DNA of 64,000 nucleotides from a bacterium (lineage in GTDB: Bacteria > Patescibacteriota > Microgenomatia > Daviesbacterales > UBA10151), in the NCBI GenBank assembly GCA_021786315.1, contig JAJYNN010000002.1:462997-526996 (forward strand), in the 5' to 3' direction. Below the pieces are notes generated by a model. It was given only the letters and a program-made list of their open reading frames with translations, was not told the origin of the DNA and made no database searches. Numbering within the stretch: the first letter of the stretch is position 1; the number at the start of each line of letters is the position of its first letter. The translations under genes and the position numbers were made by a program. Positions 7,262 through 62,919 of the stretch are shown in pieces.

Positions 7262-7435
7262 CTTGAGGTATCTGTGAAGATGGAGTAAAATGCGTGGGAT
7301 AAGGGATAAGTATTATGGAATATGGGTTCGAAAGATTTTTGTCCCGTAATACATACTACATGCCCCATTTCCCAAATAAAAAGGGCACTTTAAGTAGTTA
7401 TACACACGAAGCGTGGAACTACTGCAAGTGATCAA

Positions 7436-12754: not shown

Positions 12755-12941
12755 GGAATGCTAAAGATATCAGAATAAATCACTTGTAGAGGGGTTGAGC
12801 TTGAAGATTTTTGGAGCGGGAGACGGGATGATCACTCCTCGCTGCGTTCGGAGTTGAACCTACTTAGCTCTGCGAGATGCGTATATTCCAAATGCGGGTC
12901 TTACTCACAAAAAATCAGCCACAAGGGCCGACATTTTTATG

Positions 12942-13013
12942 AGCGGGAGACGGGATTCGAACCCGCGACATCCTCGTTGGCAACGAGGCACTCTACCACT
13001 GAGTTACTCCCGC
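12942..13013 (-). tRNA. tRNA-Gly (anticodon GCC)
   Basis: RC reads GCGGGAGTAACTCAGTGGTAGAGTGCCTCGTTGCCAACGAGGATGTCGCGGGTTCGAATCCCGTCTCCCGCT. Confidence 0.85.
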
Positions 13014-13181
13014 GAACGTTAGTGAGCGGTGAGCACTTCCGCAGCCAATTTTTGGTTGGCGAGGAGTACTCCCACATTTTGGTGCCGCAGCCTGGAATAG
13101 GGCTACTCGCTAAAGCGAGATCCTGTTCCTGTCTGCTTCAAAATTTGTCTTTGCTGACACAAGGTCAGCACGACAAACTTG

Positions 13182-13254
13182 TGCCGCAGCCTGGAATCGA
13201 ACCCGGATAAGACGCTCTTCAGGCGCCCGCCTTGACCAACTTGGCTACTGCGGC
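13182..13254 (-). tRNA. tRNA-Phe (anticodon GAA)
   Basis: RC reads GCCGCAGTAGCCAAGTTGGTCAAGGCGGGCGCCTGAAGAGCGTC..CCGGGTTCGATTCCAGGCTGCGGCA; one G-A mismatch in the T-stem. Confidence 0.8.
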
Positions 13255-13435: not shown

Positions 13436-13488
13436 TCGCTTTGCTCGGTCACTTGCGATAGTTCCGCTACGCGTGTAACTATCTAAAG

Positions 13489-13582
<94 letters not shown>

Positions 13583-15534: not shown

Positions 15535-15705
15535 AATTGGAGATTACACCTTCCACTAACTGGAATGTCAAGAGGTAAAATAGTGCTGTGGGACATGGAT
15601 TAGGGCTACTTTGACTTCGTCAAAGATCCTGTCAAGCTTCGCTTGATCGAACCCGCTTCCTTGTGCCAAGAGCGCGGATTCTCGGTTCAAAAGCACCAAA
15701 TACCA

Positions 15706-15739
15706 AAAATCCAGCCACAAAAGGACTGGATTTTTGCTA
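15706..15739 (-). terminator. Hairpin plus U-tract immediately 3' of tRNA-Gln (also reads as a hairpin plus T5 on the + strand)
   Basis: AAAAATCCAG..loop..CTGGATTTTT stem followed by a T-run. Confidence 0.5.
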
Positions 15740-15810
15740 GCTGCGGGACATGGATTCGAACCATGATAGACGGATCCAAAGTCCGTCGTCCTACCATTAG
15801 ACGATCCCGC
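15740..15810 (-). tRNA. tRNA-Gln (anticodon TTG), U1-A72 first pair, discriminator G
   Basis: RC reads TGCGGGATCGTCTAATGGTAGGACGACGGACTTTGGATCCGTCTATCATGGTTCGAATCCATGTCCCGCAG. Confidence 0.8.
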
Positions 15811-15927
15811 AATATGGATTTCTAACCATGAAATTATATCTAATTGGTGAGGAATCATCAACCGGAGATGCTTTGAAAACTCCCTCCTCCTTGTTGACAG
15901 GTAATTAGATATTGTTAAGATGCTTCC

Positions 15928-47947: not shown

Positions 47948-47994
47948 TAAACCATTTTAACAGTGGTCAAATTTAATGACTAGAGTTGGGTTAG

Positions 47995-48076
47995 TGCCGC
48001 GGGTGGGACTCGAACCCACAAGACCAAAGGCCAAAGGATTTTAAGTCCTTCGTGTATACCATTCCACCACCGCGGC
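47995..48076 (-). tRNA. tRNA-Leu (anticodon TAA), long variable arm
   Basis: RC reads GCCGCGGTGGTGGAATGGTATACACGAAGGACTTAAAATCCTT..GTGGGTTCGAGTCCCACCCGCGGCA. Confidence 0.8.
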
Positions 48077-48105
48077 GTGATCCTGTACTTATACCTTTTT
48101 TGCAG

Positions 48106-48177
48106 TCGGGGTGAGAGGAATTGAACCTCCTGCTTCTCGCTCCCAAAGCGAGCGTTCTGCCGATGAACTACACCCCG
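48106..48177 (-). tRNA. tRNA-Pro (anticodon TGG)
   Basis: RC reads CGGGGTGTAGTTCATCGGCAGAACGCTCGCTTTGGGAGCGAGAAGCAGGAGGTTCAATTCCTCTCACCCCGA. Confidence 0.85.
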
Positions 48178-48267
48178 TAGTTCTCCCCCAAACGCACCTG
48201 TAATTGTACCCTGAATTAGTTATTTTGTACACAGATTGAGCTTTCCTTTCTTGATATAATATTTGGT

Positions 48268-48675
48268 ATGGAAGATTGTATTTTTTGCAAAATTATCAGA
48301 GGCGAGATCCCTTCATACAAAGTCTATGAGGATGAGGATCATCTGGCTTTTTTGACCATCCAACCCATTAACCCCGGTCATACACTTGTTATTCCTAAAA
48401 AACATATATCTTATATTTTTGATATGGATGATAAGGATTTATGCCAACTTATGGTTGTCAGTAAAAAGGTTGCCCGGGTCTTGAAAAAGGCTTTTAGTCC
48501 CCGAACGGGCAAGATTGGGGTGATGGTTGCCGGAGGAGAAGTCCCCCATGTCCATATTCACCTTGTCCCTATGGACGATGAAAGCGACCTCACTTTTGCC
48601 AGACAAAGATCTAATGTCCCCTTGGAAGAGTTCGAGCAGACCCTGAAAAAGATAAAATCAGTATCCTTTGACTAG
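48268..48675 (+). CDS. HIT-family (histidine triad) hydrolase
   Basis: HVHIHLVP histidine triad; CIFCKII N-terminus. Confidence 0.85.
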   Translation: MEDCIFCKIIRGEIPSYKVYEDEDHLAFLTIQPINPGHTLVIPKKHISYIFDMDDKDLCQLMVVSKKVARVLKKAFSPRTGKIGVMVAGGEVPHVHIHLVPMDDESDLTFARQRSNVPLEEFEQTLKKIKSVSFD

Positions 48676-48705
48676 GGAAGTTTATTGGCCTATAATTAGT
48701 AAACT

Positions 48706-48978
48706 ATGGCAATTGAAACAGCTTCATCGCTTCCTCAACCAATTGAAGATTGGATAGTGAAAGATATCAACAGGCCTTCAAAGGGAATTATGGACCGTAC
48801 TGATAACGGGAAGCCTTTGACCCCGGAACAGCAGCTCGAACTCACACGTCAACAATGGCGGGAGTTTGCCAAAGCTTTACTGGAGATCGGAGACCCTGTT
48901 CTGGATATTTTGACCAGGTTTAGCAGTGCCCGGGAAAAAGCCCGGAAGCATGATCTTCAGCAAGATTTTGAAGTATAA
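48706..48978 (+). CDS. Hypothetical protein
   Basis: ORF only. Confidence 0.35.
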   Translation: MAIETASSLPQPIEDWIVKDINRPSKGIMDRTDNGKPLTPEQQLELTRQQWREFAKALLEIGDPVLDILTRFSSAREKARKHDLQQDFEV

Positions 48979-49060
48979 GACAATGTAATCAGACACAGCA
49001 AACCCGCTTATAATACCTTTAAGTAGTTACCAGGATCAGAATTTGATAAAATACCCATAT

Positions 49061-49133
49061 GCGCCCGTAGCTCAGTGGATAGAGCGCGACGGTTCTAACG
49101 TCAGGGTCGGGGGTTCGAATCCCTCCGGGCGCG
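49061..49133 (+). tRNA. tRNA-Arg (anticodon TCT)
   Basis: GCGCCCGTAGCTCAGTGGATAGAGCGCGACGGTTCTAACGTCAGGGTCGGGGGTTCGAATCCCTCCGGGCGCG. Confidence 0.75.
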
Positions 49134-49230
49134 CAAATTCAAAATTTGGGGTTTGCCTCCTAATTTTGAATTTACTCCTGGGTAGTCAGAATCCTCTTTG
49201 GGGTTTACATAATTTTCGCAGAAAATTACA

Positions 49231-49312
49231 GGATCGTTTTGACGAAGTCAAAAGGTAGCCCATTAGACAATGCGTTGTCGCAGGATCGTTTTGACGAAGT
49301 CAAAAGGTAGCC
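49231..49312 (+). repeat. Two direct copies of a 32-nt palindrome-containing unit (CAGGATCGTTTTGACGAAGTCAAAAGGTAGCCC) separated by 18 nt, immediately followed by a mature-like copy of the tRNA-Arg 3' end
   Basis: The two copies are identical; the unit is the same motif family as those downstream of tRNA-Phe and tRNA-Gln. Confidence 0.7.
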
Positions 49313-49382
49313 CTAATCCCTCCGGGCGCGCCACCCTATCTCCTTGCTTCCCAATCCAAAGATAGATTACTATTAAACTGAT

Positions 49383-50024
49383 ATGCGGAAAAAAGTTGTG
49401 CCCTTAATTTTTCTGGGGTTAGGTGTTTTTTTGATAGTTCAGGTAGTTATGCCTTTAGTGGCTTATAAATACTGGGAGTTTACTGCTTATAATGAAAACC
49501 AGGCACTTTTAAGCCCCAATCCGGGGGCAGGTGATGTTTTGGGAGTTTCCGTCAAAAACATTGATAACTTTCCCGCCTTTGTTTCTAATTCGGAAAGAAG
49601 AAGCTCTTTGCCTTATGAAGACTTTACCCTATCCATTCCCAGTATTAACCTTGGAGCTACCAGGGTTGAAGTTGAATCAAACAGCTTTGAACAGAGTTTA
49701 GCCCAAATGCCGGGAACCGCGTTGCCGGGAGAAAAAGGCAATGTTTTTATCACCGGCCACTCTTCCCTGCCTCAATTTTACCGGCCGGGAAATTTTAAGG
49801 CCATCTTTTCTCACTTACCGGAGGTGAAAAAGGGCGATGAGGTTATTATTGAAGCCGGCGGCCAGCGGTTTGTCTATACTATTAAAGGCATGAAGGTAGT
49901 TGATCCTTCGGAAACCTGGGTTATTAATCCTCCGGACAACAACGGCAGATATTTATCACTTATGACTTGTGTCCCCCCGGGATTATATCTAAAGAGGCTG
50001 ATAGTTTTAGCTGAACTTAATTAG
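49383..50024 (+). CDS. Sortase-family transpeptidase
   Basis: His motif FITGHSS, Cys motif LMTCVPP, N-terminal TM. Confidence 0.7.
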   Translation: MRKKVVPLIFLGLGVFLIVQVVMPLVAYKYWEFTAYNENQALLSPNPGAGDVLGVSVKNIDNFPAFVSNSERRSSLPYEDFTLSIPSINLGATRVEVESNSFEQSLAQMPGTALPGEKGNVFITGHSSLPQFYRPGNFKAIFSHLPEVKKGDEVIIEAGGQRFVYTIKGMKVVDPSETWVINPPDNNGRYLSLMTCVPPGLYLKRLIVLAELN

Positions 50025-50490
50025 AAGAAAATATTCGGTCAATTTCTATGGCGACACTTCCTTGGATTCGTTTGAGAGCTTGCTCAAAAGTAATACCAGA
50101 AATTGACGCTAAACGGACAATACGGTTACGACCTACTTCGTTTATGCCATAGCCTAAAACTGCCACCGGGAGATGGAACCTTACAGCTTCAGCTTCTAAC
50201 CGCTTTGCCTCGTCACTATTTTTTGTATCTTCGATGTTTCTTATCTCCGGACGAAGTGTGAATTTTAAGACCTCATTGTAAAGCTCAACGACATTGTACG
50301 GGTCAATTTCGTGCCGGCAGACAAAAAGATCCCTGCCATCTTCGGTGGGAAAAACACCCATAATGGTTTTAAAATCTACCCTATTCTCGTAATGGCCATA
50401 GAGGTTGTACGTATTCACATCCTCTTTTGGGGTAAGCTGGGCAAAACGTGACATTATGTTTTTATAAGAAATACTCTTATCGACTTCCAT
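50017..50490 (-). CDS. Hypothetical protein (start moved to the internal Met so as not to overlap tRNA-Gly)
   Basis: ORF only. Confidence 0.4.
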   Translation of the reverse strand: MEVDKSISYKNIMSRFAQLTPKEDVNTYNLYGHYENRVDFKTIMGVFPTEDGRDLFVCRHEIDPYNVVELYNEVLKFTLRPEIRNIEDTKNSDEAKRLEAEAVRFHLPVAVLGYGINEVGRNRIVRLASISGITFEQALKRIQGSVAIEIDRIFSSN

Positions 50491-50525
50491 ATTAAAAAAT
50501 CCAGCCAGTAAAGGCTGGGTTGGAT

Positions 50526-50597
50526 GAGCGGGATAGGGGGATCGAACCCCTGACATTCTGCTTGGAAAGCAGACGTTCTACCGCTGAACTAATCCCG
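50526..50597 (-). tRNA. tRNA-Gly (anticodon TCC)
   Basis: RC reads GCGGGATTAGTTCAGCGGTAGAACGTCTGCTTTCCAAGCAGAATGTCAGGGGTTCGATCCCCCTATCCCGCT. Confidence 0.85.
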
Positions 50598-50705
50598 CGA
50601 GTGTTACGAGCGAGGTTAGTGAAGTGGCAGGACCAGTCTGAAAGACTAGCCTACCGCCGAACTAATCCCGCAATAGGAAGTATTTTACCAAATTTTACTT
50701 AAAAT

Positions 50706-54638: not shown

Positions 54639-54698
54639 TCGTGGTGGCTGTAGCTCAGCGGTAGGCTAGTCTTTCAGACTGGTCCTGCCACTTCACTA
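54639..54698 (+). repeat. 26-nt copy of the tRNA-His 5' end (tcG-1 plus acceptor plus D-arm to GCGGTAG) fused to a 34-nt element GCTAGTCTTTCAGACTGGTCCTGCCACTTCACTA, 14 nt upstream of the real tRNA-His
   Basis: Exact identity of 54639..54664 with 54709..54734; the 34-nt element recurs in inverted orientation next to tRNA-Gly(TCC). Confidence 0.7.
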
Positions 54699-54712
54699 CA
54701 TTCCCACTTCGT

Positions 54713-54788
54713 GGTGGCTGTAGCTCAGCGGTAGAGCGCCTGCCTGTGGAGCAGGATGTCGAGGGTTCAACTCCCTTCAGCCACCCCA
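54713..54788 (+). tRNA. tRNA-His (anticodon GTG) with encoded G-1 and encoded CCA
   Basis: G GTGGCTGTAGCTCAGCGGTAGAGCGCCTGCCTGTGGAGCAGGATGTCGAGGGTTCAACTCCCTTCAGCCACCCCA. Confidence 0.85.
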
Positions 54789-62311: not shown

Positions 62312-62919
62312 CTCCTTTATCTAAAAGACATTCTAGAGCTTATAGTTAAAAAAGGAGTGAGCTACATGTAAGAAAAGATTATGATTGCAAAGTAATCTCA
62401 AGTTTTGACCATAACTGCTTCAAATTGGATTTGTTATTTGGGGTGAACTATTATCCGGTTTGACTATGGATGAAGCCAAAGTCGGCAGAGCAAAGAAAAC
62501 CAAAAAAGTAATAATCATAAAAATTAAGAGTCCAACTAAAAACCCAATTTCAAATCCTTGTGTATCAGCCGCTATCATTGGTGGAAATCCGGGGTCGGTT
62601 TTTACATCTGGTGTATCATCTTGAAGCGGGGCGTCCATACAAATTTGTGAAAATTGTCAAACTGCCCCTTTTCACGGCTGTGCCTGTAACAGCGTTAAAA
62701 AGTATGAGTTGTGGAGTTATAGGGCTACCTTCGGCTTCGCCGAACGATCCTGTAATTTCTCTCCGCCAAAAGCGGATCGAAATTATTGACCTATTGCCTA
62801 TAATCCCCGCAGCTCTAACCTTTTGTGGCAGTAACTTTTTGAGAGTCATCTTCGTTCCTTTCAACCGCAATATTAGTCCTTTTTGTTGAAAGAATTACGA
62901 GGGGTGTGTAATAAAAATG

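Follow-up and report, generated by a model that had tools for sequence, protein, structure and literature searches.

Short structured insertions sharing a hairpin module at tRNA gene 3' ends in a Microgenomatia bacterium

The tRNA-Arg(TCT) locus

We analyzed a stretch of 64,000 nucleotides from a bacterium of the Patescibacteriota (Microgenomatia; Daviesbacterales; UBA10151), taken from contig JAJYNN010000002.1 (positions 462,997 to 526,996 of the forward strand) of assembly GCA_021786315.1 and referred to in full as the window. Our subject is an insertion in the 3' end of its tRNA-Arg(TCT) gene (Table 1). Nucleotides 49135-49314 are inserted DNA, the 17-bp direct repeats on either side of them are real, and the module that they carry is shared among several tRNA genes and several genomes.

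The end of the tRNA-Arg(TCT) gene reads GCGCGC/AAATT, where the slash marks the end of the gene. A preliminary description of this DNA had placed a hairpin with a 12-bp stem directly after the gene; the hairpin is present (49135-49173) and folds as DNA at -11 kcal/mol (z = -5.64). It received no terminator score in terminator prediction, and it occupies the place that an intrinsic terminator takes in the sister elements at tRNA-Gln and tRNA-Gly(GCC) described below. The spacer that follows (49174-49209) has at its 3' end TTTGGGGTTTACA, which resembles the 5' half of a T arm in degenerate form, and the similarity of the spacer to the local tRNA is not significant. Next come two exact copies of the unit CAGGATCGTTTTGACGAAGTCAAAAGGTAGCCC, each composed of CAGGATC, a palindrome that we call palB (G-TTTTGAC-GAA-GTCAAAA-G) and GTAGCCC. 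The units had been described as 32 nt long and 18 nt apart; their identity stands, and the counts become 33 nt and 19 nt. Chance would be expected to produce no exact repeats of this kind. The palindromes that precede the two units, palA1 and the 5-bp palA2, are unrelated in sequence.

With one further T, the second unit abuts tRNA position 58 of a second copy of the tRNA-Arg 3' end. The right direct repeat, AATCCCTCCGGGCGCGC at 49315-49331, is identical to the last 17 nt of the gene (49118-49134), and the CA behind it completes a CCA at 49331-49333. The earlier reading of this junction, with a gene lacking CCA and a second unit that meets 17 nt of the tRNA 3' end plus CCA, was thus accurate, and the CCA-bearing 19-mer is a genuine copy. 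Its 17-nt identity runs through the 3' strand of the T stem, the 3' strand of the acceptor stem, the discriminator and C74, far more than the T-loop consensus explains; a given 17-mer is expected by chance about 1e-5 times in 64 kb, counting both strands. A sortase gene lies downstream of the locus (49383-50024), and its database homologues carry a Daviesbacteria annotation. On the other side, upstream of the tRNA-Arg promoter, a TTTAAGTAGTTACCAGGATCAG remnant was seen at 49016-49040 (+).

Table 1. Features of the tRNA-Arg(TCT) locus and related elements in the window
Feature	Position	Strand	Evidence
tRNA-Arg(TCT), functional gene without encoded CCA	49061-49134	+	ARAGORN; Rfam tRNA 61.2 bits
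Left direct repeat (attL side), last 17 nt of tRNA-Arg, positions 58-74	49118-49134	+	
Left part of insertion: hairpin, 12-bp A/T-only stem, 15-nt loop	49135-49173	+	
Internal spacer, 36 nt, 3' end TTTGGGGTTTACA	49174-49209	+	sequence
palA1, left palindrome of module 1: TAATTTTC-GCA-GAAAATTA	49210-49228	+	
33-nt unit 1, CAGGATCGTTTTGACGAAGTCAAAAGGTAGCCC	49229-49261	+	exact repeat; perfect 7-bp stem
19-nt spacer between units, holding palA2 (GACAA-TGCG-TTGTC)	49262-49280	+	
33-nt unit 2, CAGGATCGTTTTGACGAAGTCAAAAGGTAGCCC (49281-49313), plus T (49314), right end of insertion	49281-49314	+	
Displaced original tRNA-Arg 3' end: positions 58-74 plus CA	49315-49333	+	17/17 identity
Sister element at tRNA-Phe (13181-13254): ACAGGATC-TCGCTTTAGCGA-GTAGCCCT, ATTCCAGGCTGCGGCAC (positions 58-74), CA	13080-13126	-	
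Sister element at tRNA-Gln(TTG) (15740-15811)	15585-15739	-	
Element at tRNA-Gly(GCC) (12941-13013), type-2 insert	12812-12940	-	
Fifth type-1 module, without tRNA partner: AGGTCAAT, palA, ACAGGATC, palB, GTAGCCCT, ATAACTCCACAACTCA	62700-62792	-	

Sister elements in the window

We compared all 13 tRNA genes of the window with its 64 kb in a scan for shared 14-mers and inspected their flanks. In four of the 13, positions 58/59-74 recur downstream, behind a structured insert in every case; the copies match at 17/17 positions for Arg and Phe, 16/17 for Gln and 16/16 for Gly(GCC), and the upstream genes at these loci score as normal tRNAs. The common architecture consists of the tRNA, a hairpin or terminator, ACAGGATC, a variable perfect palindrome, GTAGCCCT and tRNA positions 58-74. 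Variants of the unit lie at 13099-13126, 15602-15632 and 62721-62753, all on the minus strand. The element at tRNA-Gln(TTG) consists, in order, of a terminator, a hairpin termed P0, GGTTCGAT, palA, ACAGGATC, palB, GTAGCCCT and AATCCATGTCCCaCAGC, the last being its copy of positions 58-74, which has no CCA. The tRNA-Gly(GCC) insert is of a second type, comprising a terminator, GCATCTCGCAGAGCTAAGTAGGTTCAA and 24 further nucleotides, ATCCCGTCTCCCGCTC (positions 59-74) and CA. Terminator prediction placed terminators directly after tRNA-Gln and tRNA-Gly(GCC).

CCA is encoded in three of the four downstream copies, compared with two of the 13 tRNA genes in the window. Only tRNA-Val(GAC) and tRNA-His encode it in full; ten of the other 11 genes have the discriminator and C followed by A or T (for example GGCAC/AAG and GCGCGC/AAA), and tRNA-Leu(TAG) reads GGGCACC/G.

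A fifth module (62721-62792, -) lies 3' of a DksA/TraR-like gene. No empty site was found for it among the loci of DksA-like homologues, of which few were recovered; only identical strains turned up. Contigs assembled from short reads of the same strain terminate at the module, the fifth site included, as expected of a multi-copy repeat.

Empty sites and relatives in other genomes

We then examined related loci outside the window (labels beginning with L). At L142, which holds the closest MerR homologue on another contig, an intact tRNA-Gln runs straight into the merR promoter, and the roughly 60 nt past this tRNA are nearly identical to the roughly 60 nt past the downstream Gln copy in the window. 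At L147 (GCA_043803605.1), tRNA-Arg(+) lies directly upstream of the sortase gene, and TATCT.., CTTGCTT and TTACTATTAA occur both in its flank and in the DNA 3' of the downstream copy in the window. The downstream copy thus sits where the ancestral tRNA 3' end was, and all the DNA that separates the two 17-mers has been inserted. The preliminary proposal that the module forms the terminus of an inserted element is supported. The closest relative recovered for the Arg locus, L132, has a sortase that is 79% identical, a tRNA-Arg end GCGCGCAA that is the same as the upstream copy in the window, a small open reading frame (ORF) and no module.

Two other origins for the downstream copies were considered and rejected. 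The first, a decayed tandem duplicate of the whole tRNA, falls away for five loci out of six, where the sequence ahead of the module was no closer to the local tRNA than shuffled sequence; only L003 showed significant similarity (22 nt, positions 36-57). A retro-copy, in which reverse transcriptase stops at methylated A58 and CCA comes from the mature tRNA, has the wrong orientation for tRNA priming; moreover, only four of 11 downstream copies across loci carry CCA, and the empty sites show the copy in situ.

In pattern scans of public collections, all true relatives came from Microgenomates or from metagenome bins without classification. They comprise L002 (tRNA-Glu), L003 (tRNA-Trp), L005 (identical to L128), L129 (tRNA-Gln(CTG)) and L131. 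In L002, L003, L129 and L005 (tRNA-Phe), too, a downstream copy of the tRNA end follows a structured insert. The unit is therefore not confined to the Arg locus but recurs at other tRNA genes and in other genomes. L003 holds a 312-aa glycosyltransferase-like ORF between tRNA-Trp and the module, as cargo, and the downstream copy at L129 ends in CCA. The tRNA-Phe gene has a type-1 insert in the window and a type-2 insert in L005, and such different inserts at the same gene in two genomes indicate independent acquisitions. The searches with the DksA-like and MerR homologues yielded few loci. L058 matched the module through a coding tandem repeat, and L001, L004, L006, L127 and L130 were chance pattern matches; all six were discarded. 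We searched viral contigs, phages and plasmids for the module as well and found no true match. Rfam, both at gathering thresholds and at E <= 10, reported tRNAs only and no family for the module.

Further tRNA-like remnants were seen at some elements. In L005, a second tRNA-end-like fragment, TCGTTCGGCAC-AAA (775-800, -), follows the displaced tRNA-Phe end, which suggests tandem arrays of tRNA 3' remnants in this locus. The P0 region of the Gln element in the window (15646-15703, -; GAATCCGCGCTCTTGGCACA) resembles a decayed tRNA-Glu-like 3' end, and so does the P0 region of the Glu element of L002 (around 870-925; TAATCTGCGCTCTACACA). The elements may carry fossil ends of earlier host tRNAs.

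None of the collections searched contained an array of more than two units, and single units were the rule everywhere except at the Arg locus. The preliminary suggestion that the module can amplify is accordingly not sustained: it goes back to one tandem pair, whose units follow unrelated palindromes. Since the identical 33-mers are preceded by unrelated palindromes and no 17-mer lies between them, the pair has the appearance of a head-to-tail junction of two modules rather than of a simple duplication or a repeat of the CRISPR type. The succession of a 33-nt repeat, a 19-nt spacer and a second repeat does have the outline of a two-repeat mini-CRISPR array, and the placement of the insert exactly at T-loop 57/58 is that of a T-loop intron. 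We rejected both, and they are next to impossible in our estimate, being already contradicted. The 64 kb contain no cas genes, no arrays were found and the 'second spacer' is native gene sequence, so the preliminary verdict against CRISPR holds; as for an intron, the upstream gene is complete without splicing, Rfam gave no group I or group II signal, and empty sites exist. Group I introns have been described in tRNA genes of Patescibacteria (PMC13011429).

Structure of the module

The full module reads ..GGTTCRA / T-palA-ACAGGATC-palB-GTAGCCCT / A58..., the slashes marking its borders, which places it at T-loop 57/58, or at 58/59 when the module is taken to include the terminal A. The left flank is GGTTCRA or a near match in seven of the nine full-length (two-palindrome) modules, and the right flank is tRNA position 58/59. 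The sequences of palA and palB vary between copies and the palindromes are almost always perfect: 118 of 120 stem pairs are Watson-Crick and two are G-U. For palB, which occurs in eight distinct sequences, all 39 of 39 cells are paired, compensatory changes occur at three pairs, and none of 500 shuffles reached its covariation score. It also keeps a C-G pair adjoining a GAA or AAA loop, and most loops in the module are C-GAA-G or C-GCA-G. GNA triloops are very stable in single-stranded DNA. Because G-U pairs are nearly absent and the loops are of the C-GAA-G or C-GCA-G kind, the hairpins would fit formation in DNA better than they would fit a selected RNA. Three features are absent from the preliminary description: the variable but paired hairpin, the insertion site at T-loop 57/58 (or 58/59), and the identity of the downstream copy as the gene's original end.

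Two larger folds were tried and set aside. An RNA-level helix GGUUC/GGAUC around palA is predicted, but it depends on G-U pairing while the real stems are nearly free of G-U, and we give it no weight. In L129 and L005 an upstream strand could close a cloverleaf or minihelix resembling a tRNA, a fold that is not conserved.

Gene content and a recombinase island at the same site

Among the ORFs of at least 100 aa in the window, none matched a Pfam integrase, transposase, reverse transcriptase, HUH (TnpA-type) or Cas family. The roughly 180-bp Arg insertion contains no ORF, and genes for TnpB, Tn7-like proteins or RNA-guided effectors are absent from the 64 kb. Since no recombinase-type Pfam match was found among these ORFs, the elements of the window are non-autonomous, and the Arg element is at most a non-autonomous or decayed member of the tRNA islands bounded by attachment (att) sites.

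Such an island was recovered at tRNA-Arg(TCT) itself, at the same sublocation, in L146, a locus from the groundwater metagenome series that also yielded L128 and L129. Over about 5 kb it presents, in order, a large serine recombinase gene that overlaps the tRNA 3' end and encodes 532 aa (Pfam matches Resolvase, 6.6e-34, and Recombinase, 2e-15), about 5 kb of cargo including a ParE toxin gene, a GC-rich hairpin and a 16-nt copy of positions 59-74. This is a classical island layout, and L146 is an autonomous analogue of the elements in the window.

A large serine recombinase gene was also observed at another tRNA gene. In L135 (2126-5313), the gene for a 528-aa enzyme overlaps the 3' end of tRNA-Pro, within an island of about 3 kb that is bounded by a 13-bp repeat, GTGGTTTAAGTTG (near 2186 and 5299), and that has no tRNA-end copy.

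Nature of the insertion

We favour the reading, with a probability of roughly 58%, that 49135-49314 is a miniature, gene-less, non-autonomous element in the 3' end of tRNA-Arg(TCT), and that the 33-nt module is its conserved end. Counting one 17-bp repeat, the Arg element measures about 197 bp. Integration would have taken place somewhere between T-loop position 58 and C74, and the element would bring its own copy of that segment, so that the tRNA gene stays intact. The working gene would then be the upstream copy, without CCA and followed by the element's hairpin, and the original gene end with its CCA and native flank would have been pushed to the far side, as at attR. The 33-nt unit would represent the terminal module conserved in the family (ACAGGATC, the variable paired palindrome and GTAGCCCT), always abutting position 58. 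Movement, present or past, would have proceeded by site-specific recombination in trans, with the enzyme encoded elsewhere; by analogy, the leading candidate is a large serine recombinase like the one that L146 encodes at the same tRNA site. The hairpin module may act as an element-side recognition or structural site and would probably be read as folded DNA.

Several observations weigh against a single element of this kind. Palindromes that vary in sequence and keep their pairing are atypical of serine and tyrosine integrase sites, which are read as double-stranded sequence. No type-1 module copy was found beside a recombinase gene, the link to large serine recombinases being one of analogy, and the right end of the L146 island differs. 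The fifth module (62721-62792) has neither a tRNA partner nor a direct repeat of its flank. At L003 the module interrupts a 39-nt tRNA-Trp copy (positions 36-74) and so resembles a secondary insertion, and the tandem Arg pair lacks a 17-mer between its modules, in contrast to the arrays that repeated integration usually leaves. Lastly, the flank similarity at the empty Arg site is modest, whereas the Gln case is clear.

Some of these observations would be accommodated by two separate events, in which the displaced tRNA end and a T-loop-like left half (..GGTTCRA) date from an older integration and the module is an independent small hairpin transposon. The latter would be the segment T-palA-ACAGGATC-palB-GTAGCCCT, about 55-70 nt long, which would insert after TTCR(A) like a palindrome-associated transposable element (PATE), a miniature of IS200/IS605, without terminal inverted repeats or target duplication, and which would survive only in dispensable tRNA remnants. 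The flanks point this way: seven of the nine full-length modules are entered from a GGTTCRA-type sequence and left at position 58/59, those of L005 form a T stem (GGAGG/CCTCT), and L003, the sole locus with significant similarity, has 22 nt of local tRNA (36-57) directly left of the module. The same can be said of the fifth module, which stands at AGGTCAA/ with no direct repeat, of the unrelated type-2 insert at the identical position, of the almost purely Watson-Crick stems with their mostly C-GAA-G or C-GCA-G loops, and of the head-to-tail modules at the Arg locus.

PATEs and repetitive extragenic palindromic (REP) repeats, which are moved by the transposase RAYT, share several traits with the module if the module alone is taken as the inserted unit, including subterminal hairpins at both ends, multiple copies, no terminal inverted repeats, a position just 3' of TTCRA, and Watson-Crick-only stems with GNA-type loops that suit single-stranded DNA. 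They differ in that the left hairpin of the module lies directly at the junction, 1 nt away, which is unlike an IS608-type left end; in that no TnpA, TnpB or RAYT gene was seen, the window ORFs including neither a Y1 transposase (TnpA) nor TnpB; in that most module copies lie within the 17-bp direct-repeat structure; and, for REP, in that the GTAG motif of the module is 3' of the hairpin (the opposite of REP). Two further results favour a single unit. The block P0-AGGAAGCGGGTTCRAT-module is common to the elements at Gln-TTG, Glu-CTC and Gln-CTG, inherited whole at three tRNAs, and all five of the five tRNA-end copies that were found without the module as probe have an insert at the junction, the exception being the recombinase island L146. 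We hold the two-event account to be possible yet rather unlikely.

A different explanation would assign the module a role in targeting. The module and the adjoining 16-17 nt of tRNA could form a programmable targeting device, an RNA or folded single-stranded DNA guide by which a recombinase, transposase or nuclease with its gene elsewhere is brought to the matched tRNA T loop, with TTCR acting in the manner of a protospacer-adjacent motif (PAM). If true, this would explain one conserved end at Arg, Phe, Gln, Glu and Trp genes; we consider it improbable. Slightly less credible still is the specific version in which the module is the scaffold hairpin of a guide RNA carrying a 17-19 nt tRNA guide, for a TnpB omega RNA, a Cas12 system or a system of the homing CRISPR RNA (crRNA) type found in CRISPR-associated transposons (CAST), with TTCR (T-loop 54-57) as PAM or target-adjacent motif, the guide starting at A58 and tRNA genes as targets. 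Guide RNAs are known from type V-K CAST homing crRNAs, which target tRNA genes, and from TnpB omega RNAs.

The likeness consists in a 16-17-nt match to a tRNA gene that directly follows a hairpin and conserved boxes, in the T-rich motif TTCR (TTCG or TTCA) before the matched site in the gene, and in the repeat-spacer-repeat look of the Arg locus; in addition, an IS605-type guide is the native flank at the right end, which agrees with the empty sites. Against it, no effector or transposition genes (cas, tnpB or Tn7-like) occur in the 64 kb, the match is the native gene end, and the hairpin varies in sequence within one genome, where a single effector would be expected to have uniform repeats. 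A guide of this sequence would perfectly match the intact gene 180 bp upstream and so target its own genome, no promoter was predicted before the module and Rfam gave no match, and the 19-nt 'spacer' is a palindrome at the position that palA takes in other copies.

The inserts might instead be structured RNA or DNA of benefit to the host, as a 3' trailer or insulator, as a CCA-ending tRNA-like decoy, or as a shield against islands and phages. They do provide a terminator between the tRNA and downstream genes, the downstream copies encode CCA more often than the tRNA genes of the window (3/4 versus 2/13), and in L129 and L005 the copied strands of the acceptor and T stem have a possible pairing partner in an upstream segment. 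However, presence and absence vary among close relatives, the mismatch in the Gln copy breaks acceptor pairing, the closing helix is not kept across loci, and near-absence of G-U pairs is unusual for a selected RNA. We give this explanation very little credence, marginally less than the guide RNA.

Comparison with known systems

Returning to the favoured non-autonomous element, its closest counterparts are the islands and prophages that integrate into tRNA genes, whose T-loop sublocation classes were reportedly set out by Williams in 2002 in Nucleic Acids Res. As in those of the T-loop sublocation, the insertion is in the 3' part of the tRNA, the gene receives a new 3' end from the element, the direct repeat spans the T loop through the gene end with the displaced original end at the far junction, and presence varies among relatives, with the serine-recombinase island of L146 at the same tRNA-Arg site. 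Unlike them, the elements in the window are only about 100-200 bp long with no recombinase or other gene, one terminal module serves several tRNAs, and the variable but paired palindromes are atypical of integrase sites.

Att-bounded, non-autonomous elements are represented by the cis-mobilizable elements (CIMEs) of Streptococcus and by decayed remnants of archaeal tRNA-gene islands. These likewise keep attL and attR without recombination genes, are presumed to be mobilized in trans and accrete in tandem at tRNA sites. The elements described here are one to two orders of magnitude smaller, no parent element was identified for them, and, in a lineage of the Candidate Phyla Radiation (CPR), they form a family that shares a structured, conserved end. 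Integron attC sites resemble the module in that structure is kept while sequence varies and in their location at the 3' end of an inserted unit that in some cases carries a gene. They form one long imperfect hairpin and so differ from its two short, separate and perfect hairpins with the conserved boxes ACAGGATC and GTAGCCCT; the module has no R''/L''/L'/R' boxes (RYYYAAC...GTTRRRY), and no integron integrase is encoded in the window.

The kind of element is thus already known, as tRNA-gene integrating elements and their non-autonomous derivatives. What seems to be undescribed is the tiny size, the conserved end of two palindromes that vary but stay paired, and the use of one end at several tRNAs; a literature search found no description of these tRNA-end hairpin elements. 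tRNA genes are classic landing sites of islands and phages, and here a gene-less family of 100-200 bp appears to use them in a bacterium whose genome is very small and probably holds each tRNA gene in a single copy. The occurrence of one conserved end at tRNAs of at least five identities raises the question of how targets are chosen, and if the adjoining 17-mer sets the target, the family would be a simple natural example of sequence-programmed integration. In practical terms, the elements give false signals of mini-CRISPR arrays and tRNA fragments, break short-read assemblies and mark rearrangement hot spots in CPR genomes.

Other variation at tRNA genes

Copies of tRNA 5' ends were observed as well. 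In the window, the 5' end of the gene is repeated upstream of both tRNA-His (54644-54713, +; positions 1-22) and tRNA-Gly(TCC) (50599-50671, -; positions 1-21); each copy is followed by a common module of about 34 nt, GCTAGTCTTTCAGACTGGTCCTGCCACTTCACTA, and then by the full gene. The arrangement is the D-loop mirror image of the T-loop case, and in both the promoter lies upstream of the partial copy. An identical tRNA-Gly(TCC) without the copy occurs in L139, and L135 has a different insert of 44 nt in the same place. Both tRNA-Val genes (leaders 7380-7435, +, and 13436-13495, -) are preceded by GG(G)CACTT (positions 1-8), a palindrome and GCAAGTGA; the two palindromes covary (AGTAGTT/AACTACT versus GATAGTT/AACTATC). 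The leader of tRNA-Gly(GCC) (13014-13079, -) contains GTGGGAGTA (positions 1-9), a hairpin and ..CTCACTAAC, and CAGGATCAC lies directly 5' of tRNA-Leu(TAA).

Stand-alone genes for GIY-YIG nucleases of about 82 aa adjoin tRNA-Gly in L135 (12028-12279), L139 (4397-4645) and L141 (about 30-310). The gene precedes tRNA-Gly in one genome and follows it in the others; these may be free-standing homing endonucleases at tRNA loci. A strain-variable island with no detectable direct repeat was seen at tRNA-Gly(TCC) in L150 (15930-17480) and L153 (6166-7990), which encode an identical sortase protein and differ in the genes past the tRNA, with a 427-aa ORF in one contig and Bro-N and a signal-peptidase-like gene in the other.

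Finally, we compared 47994-50598 of the window with L135, L139, L146, L147, L148 and L150. Single tRNA genes (Leu-TAA, Pro, Arg and Gly-TCC) are inverted in place between Daviesbacteria genomes, with the flanking protein genes collinear. Leu-TAA and Pro are both flipped and keep their mutual order.

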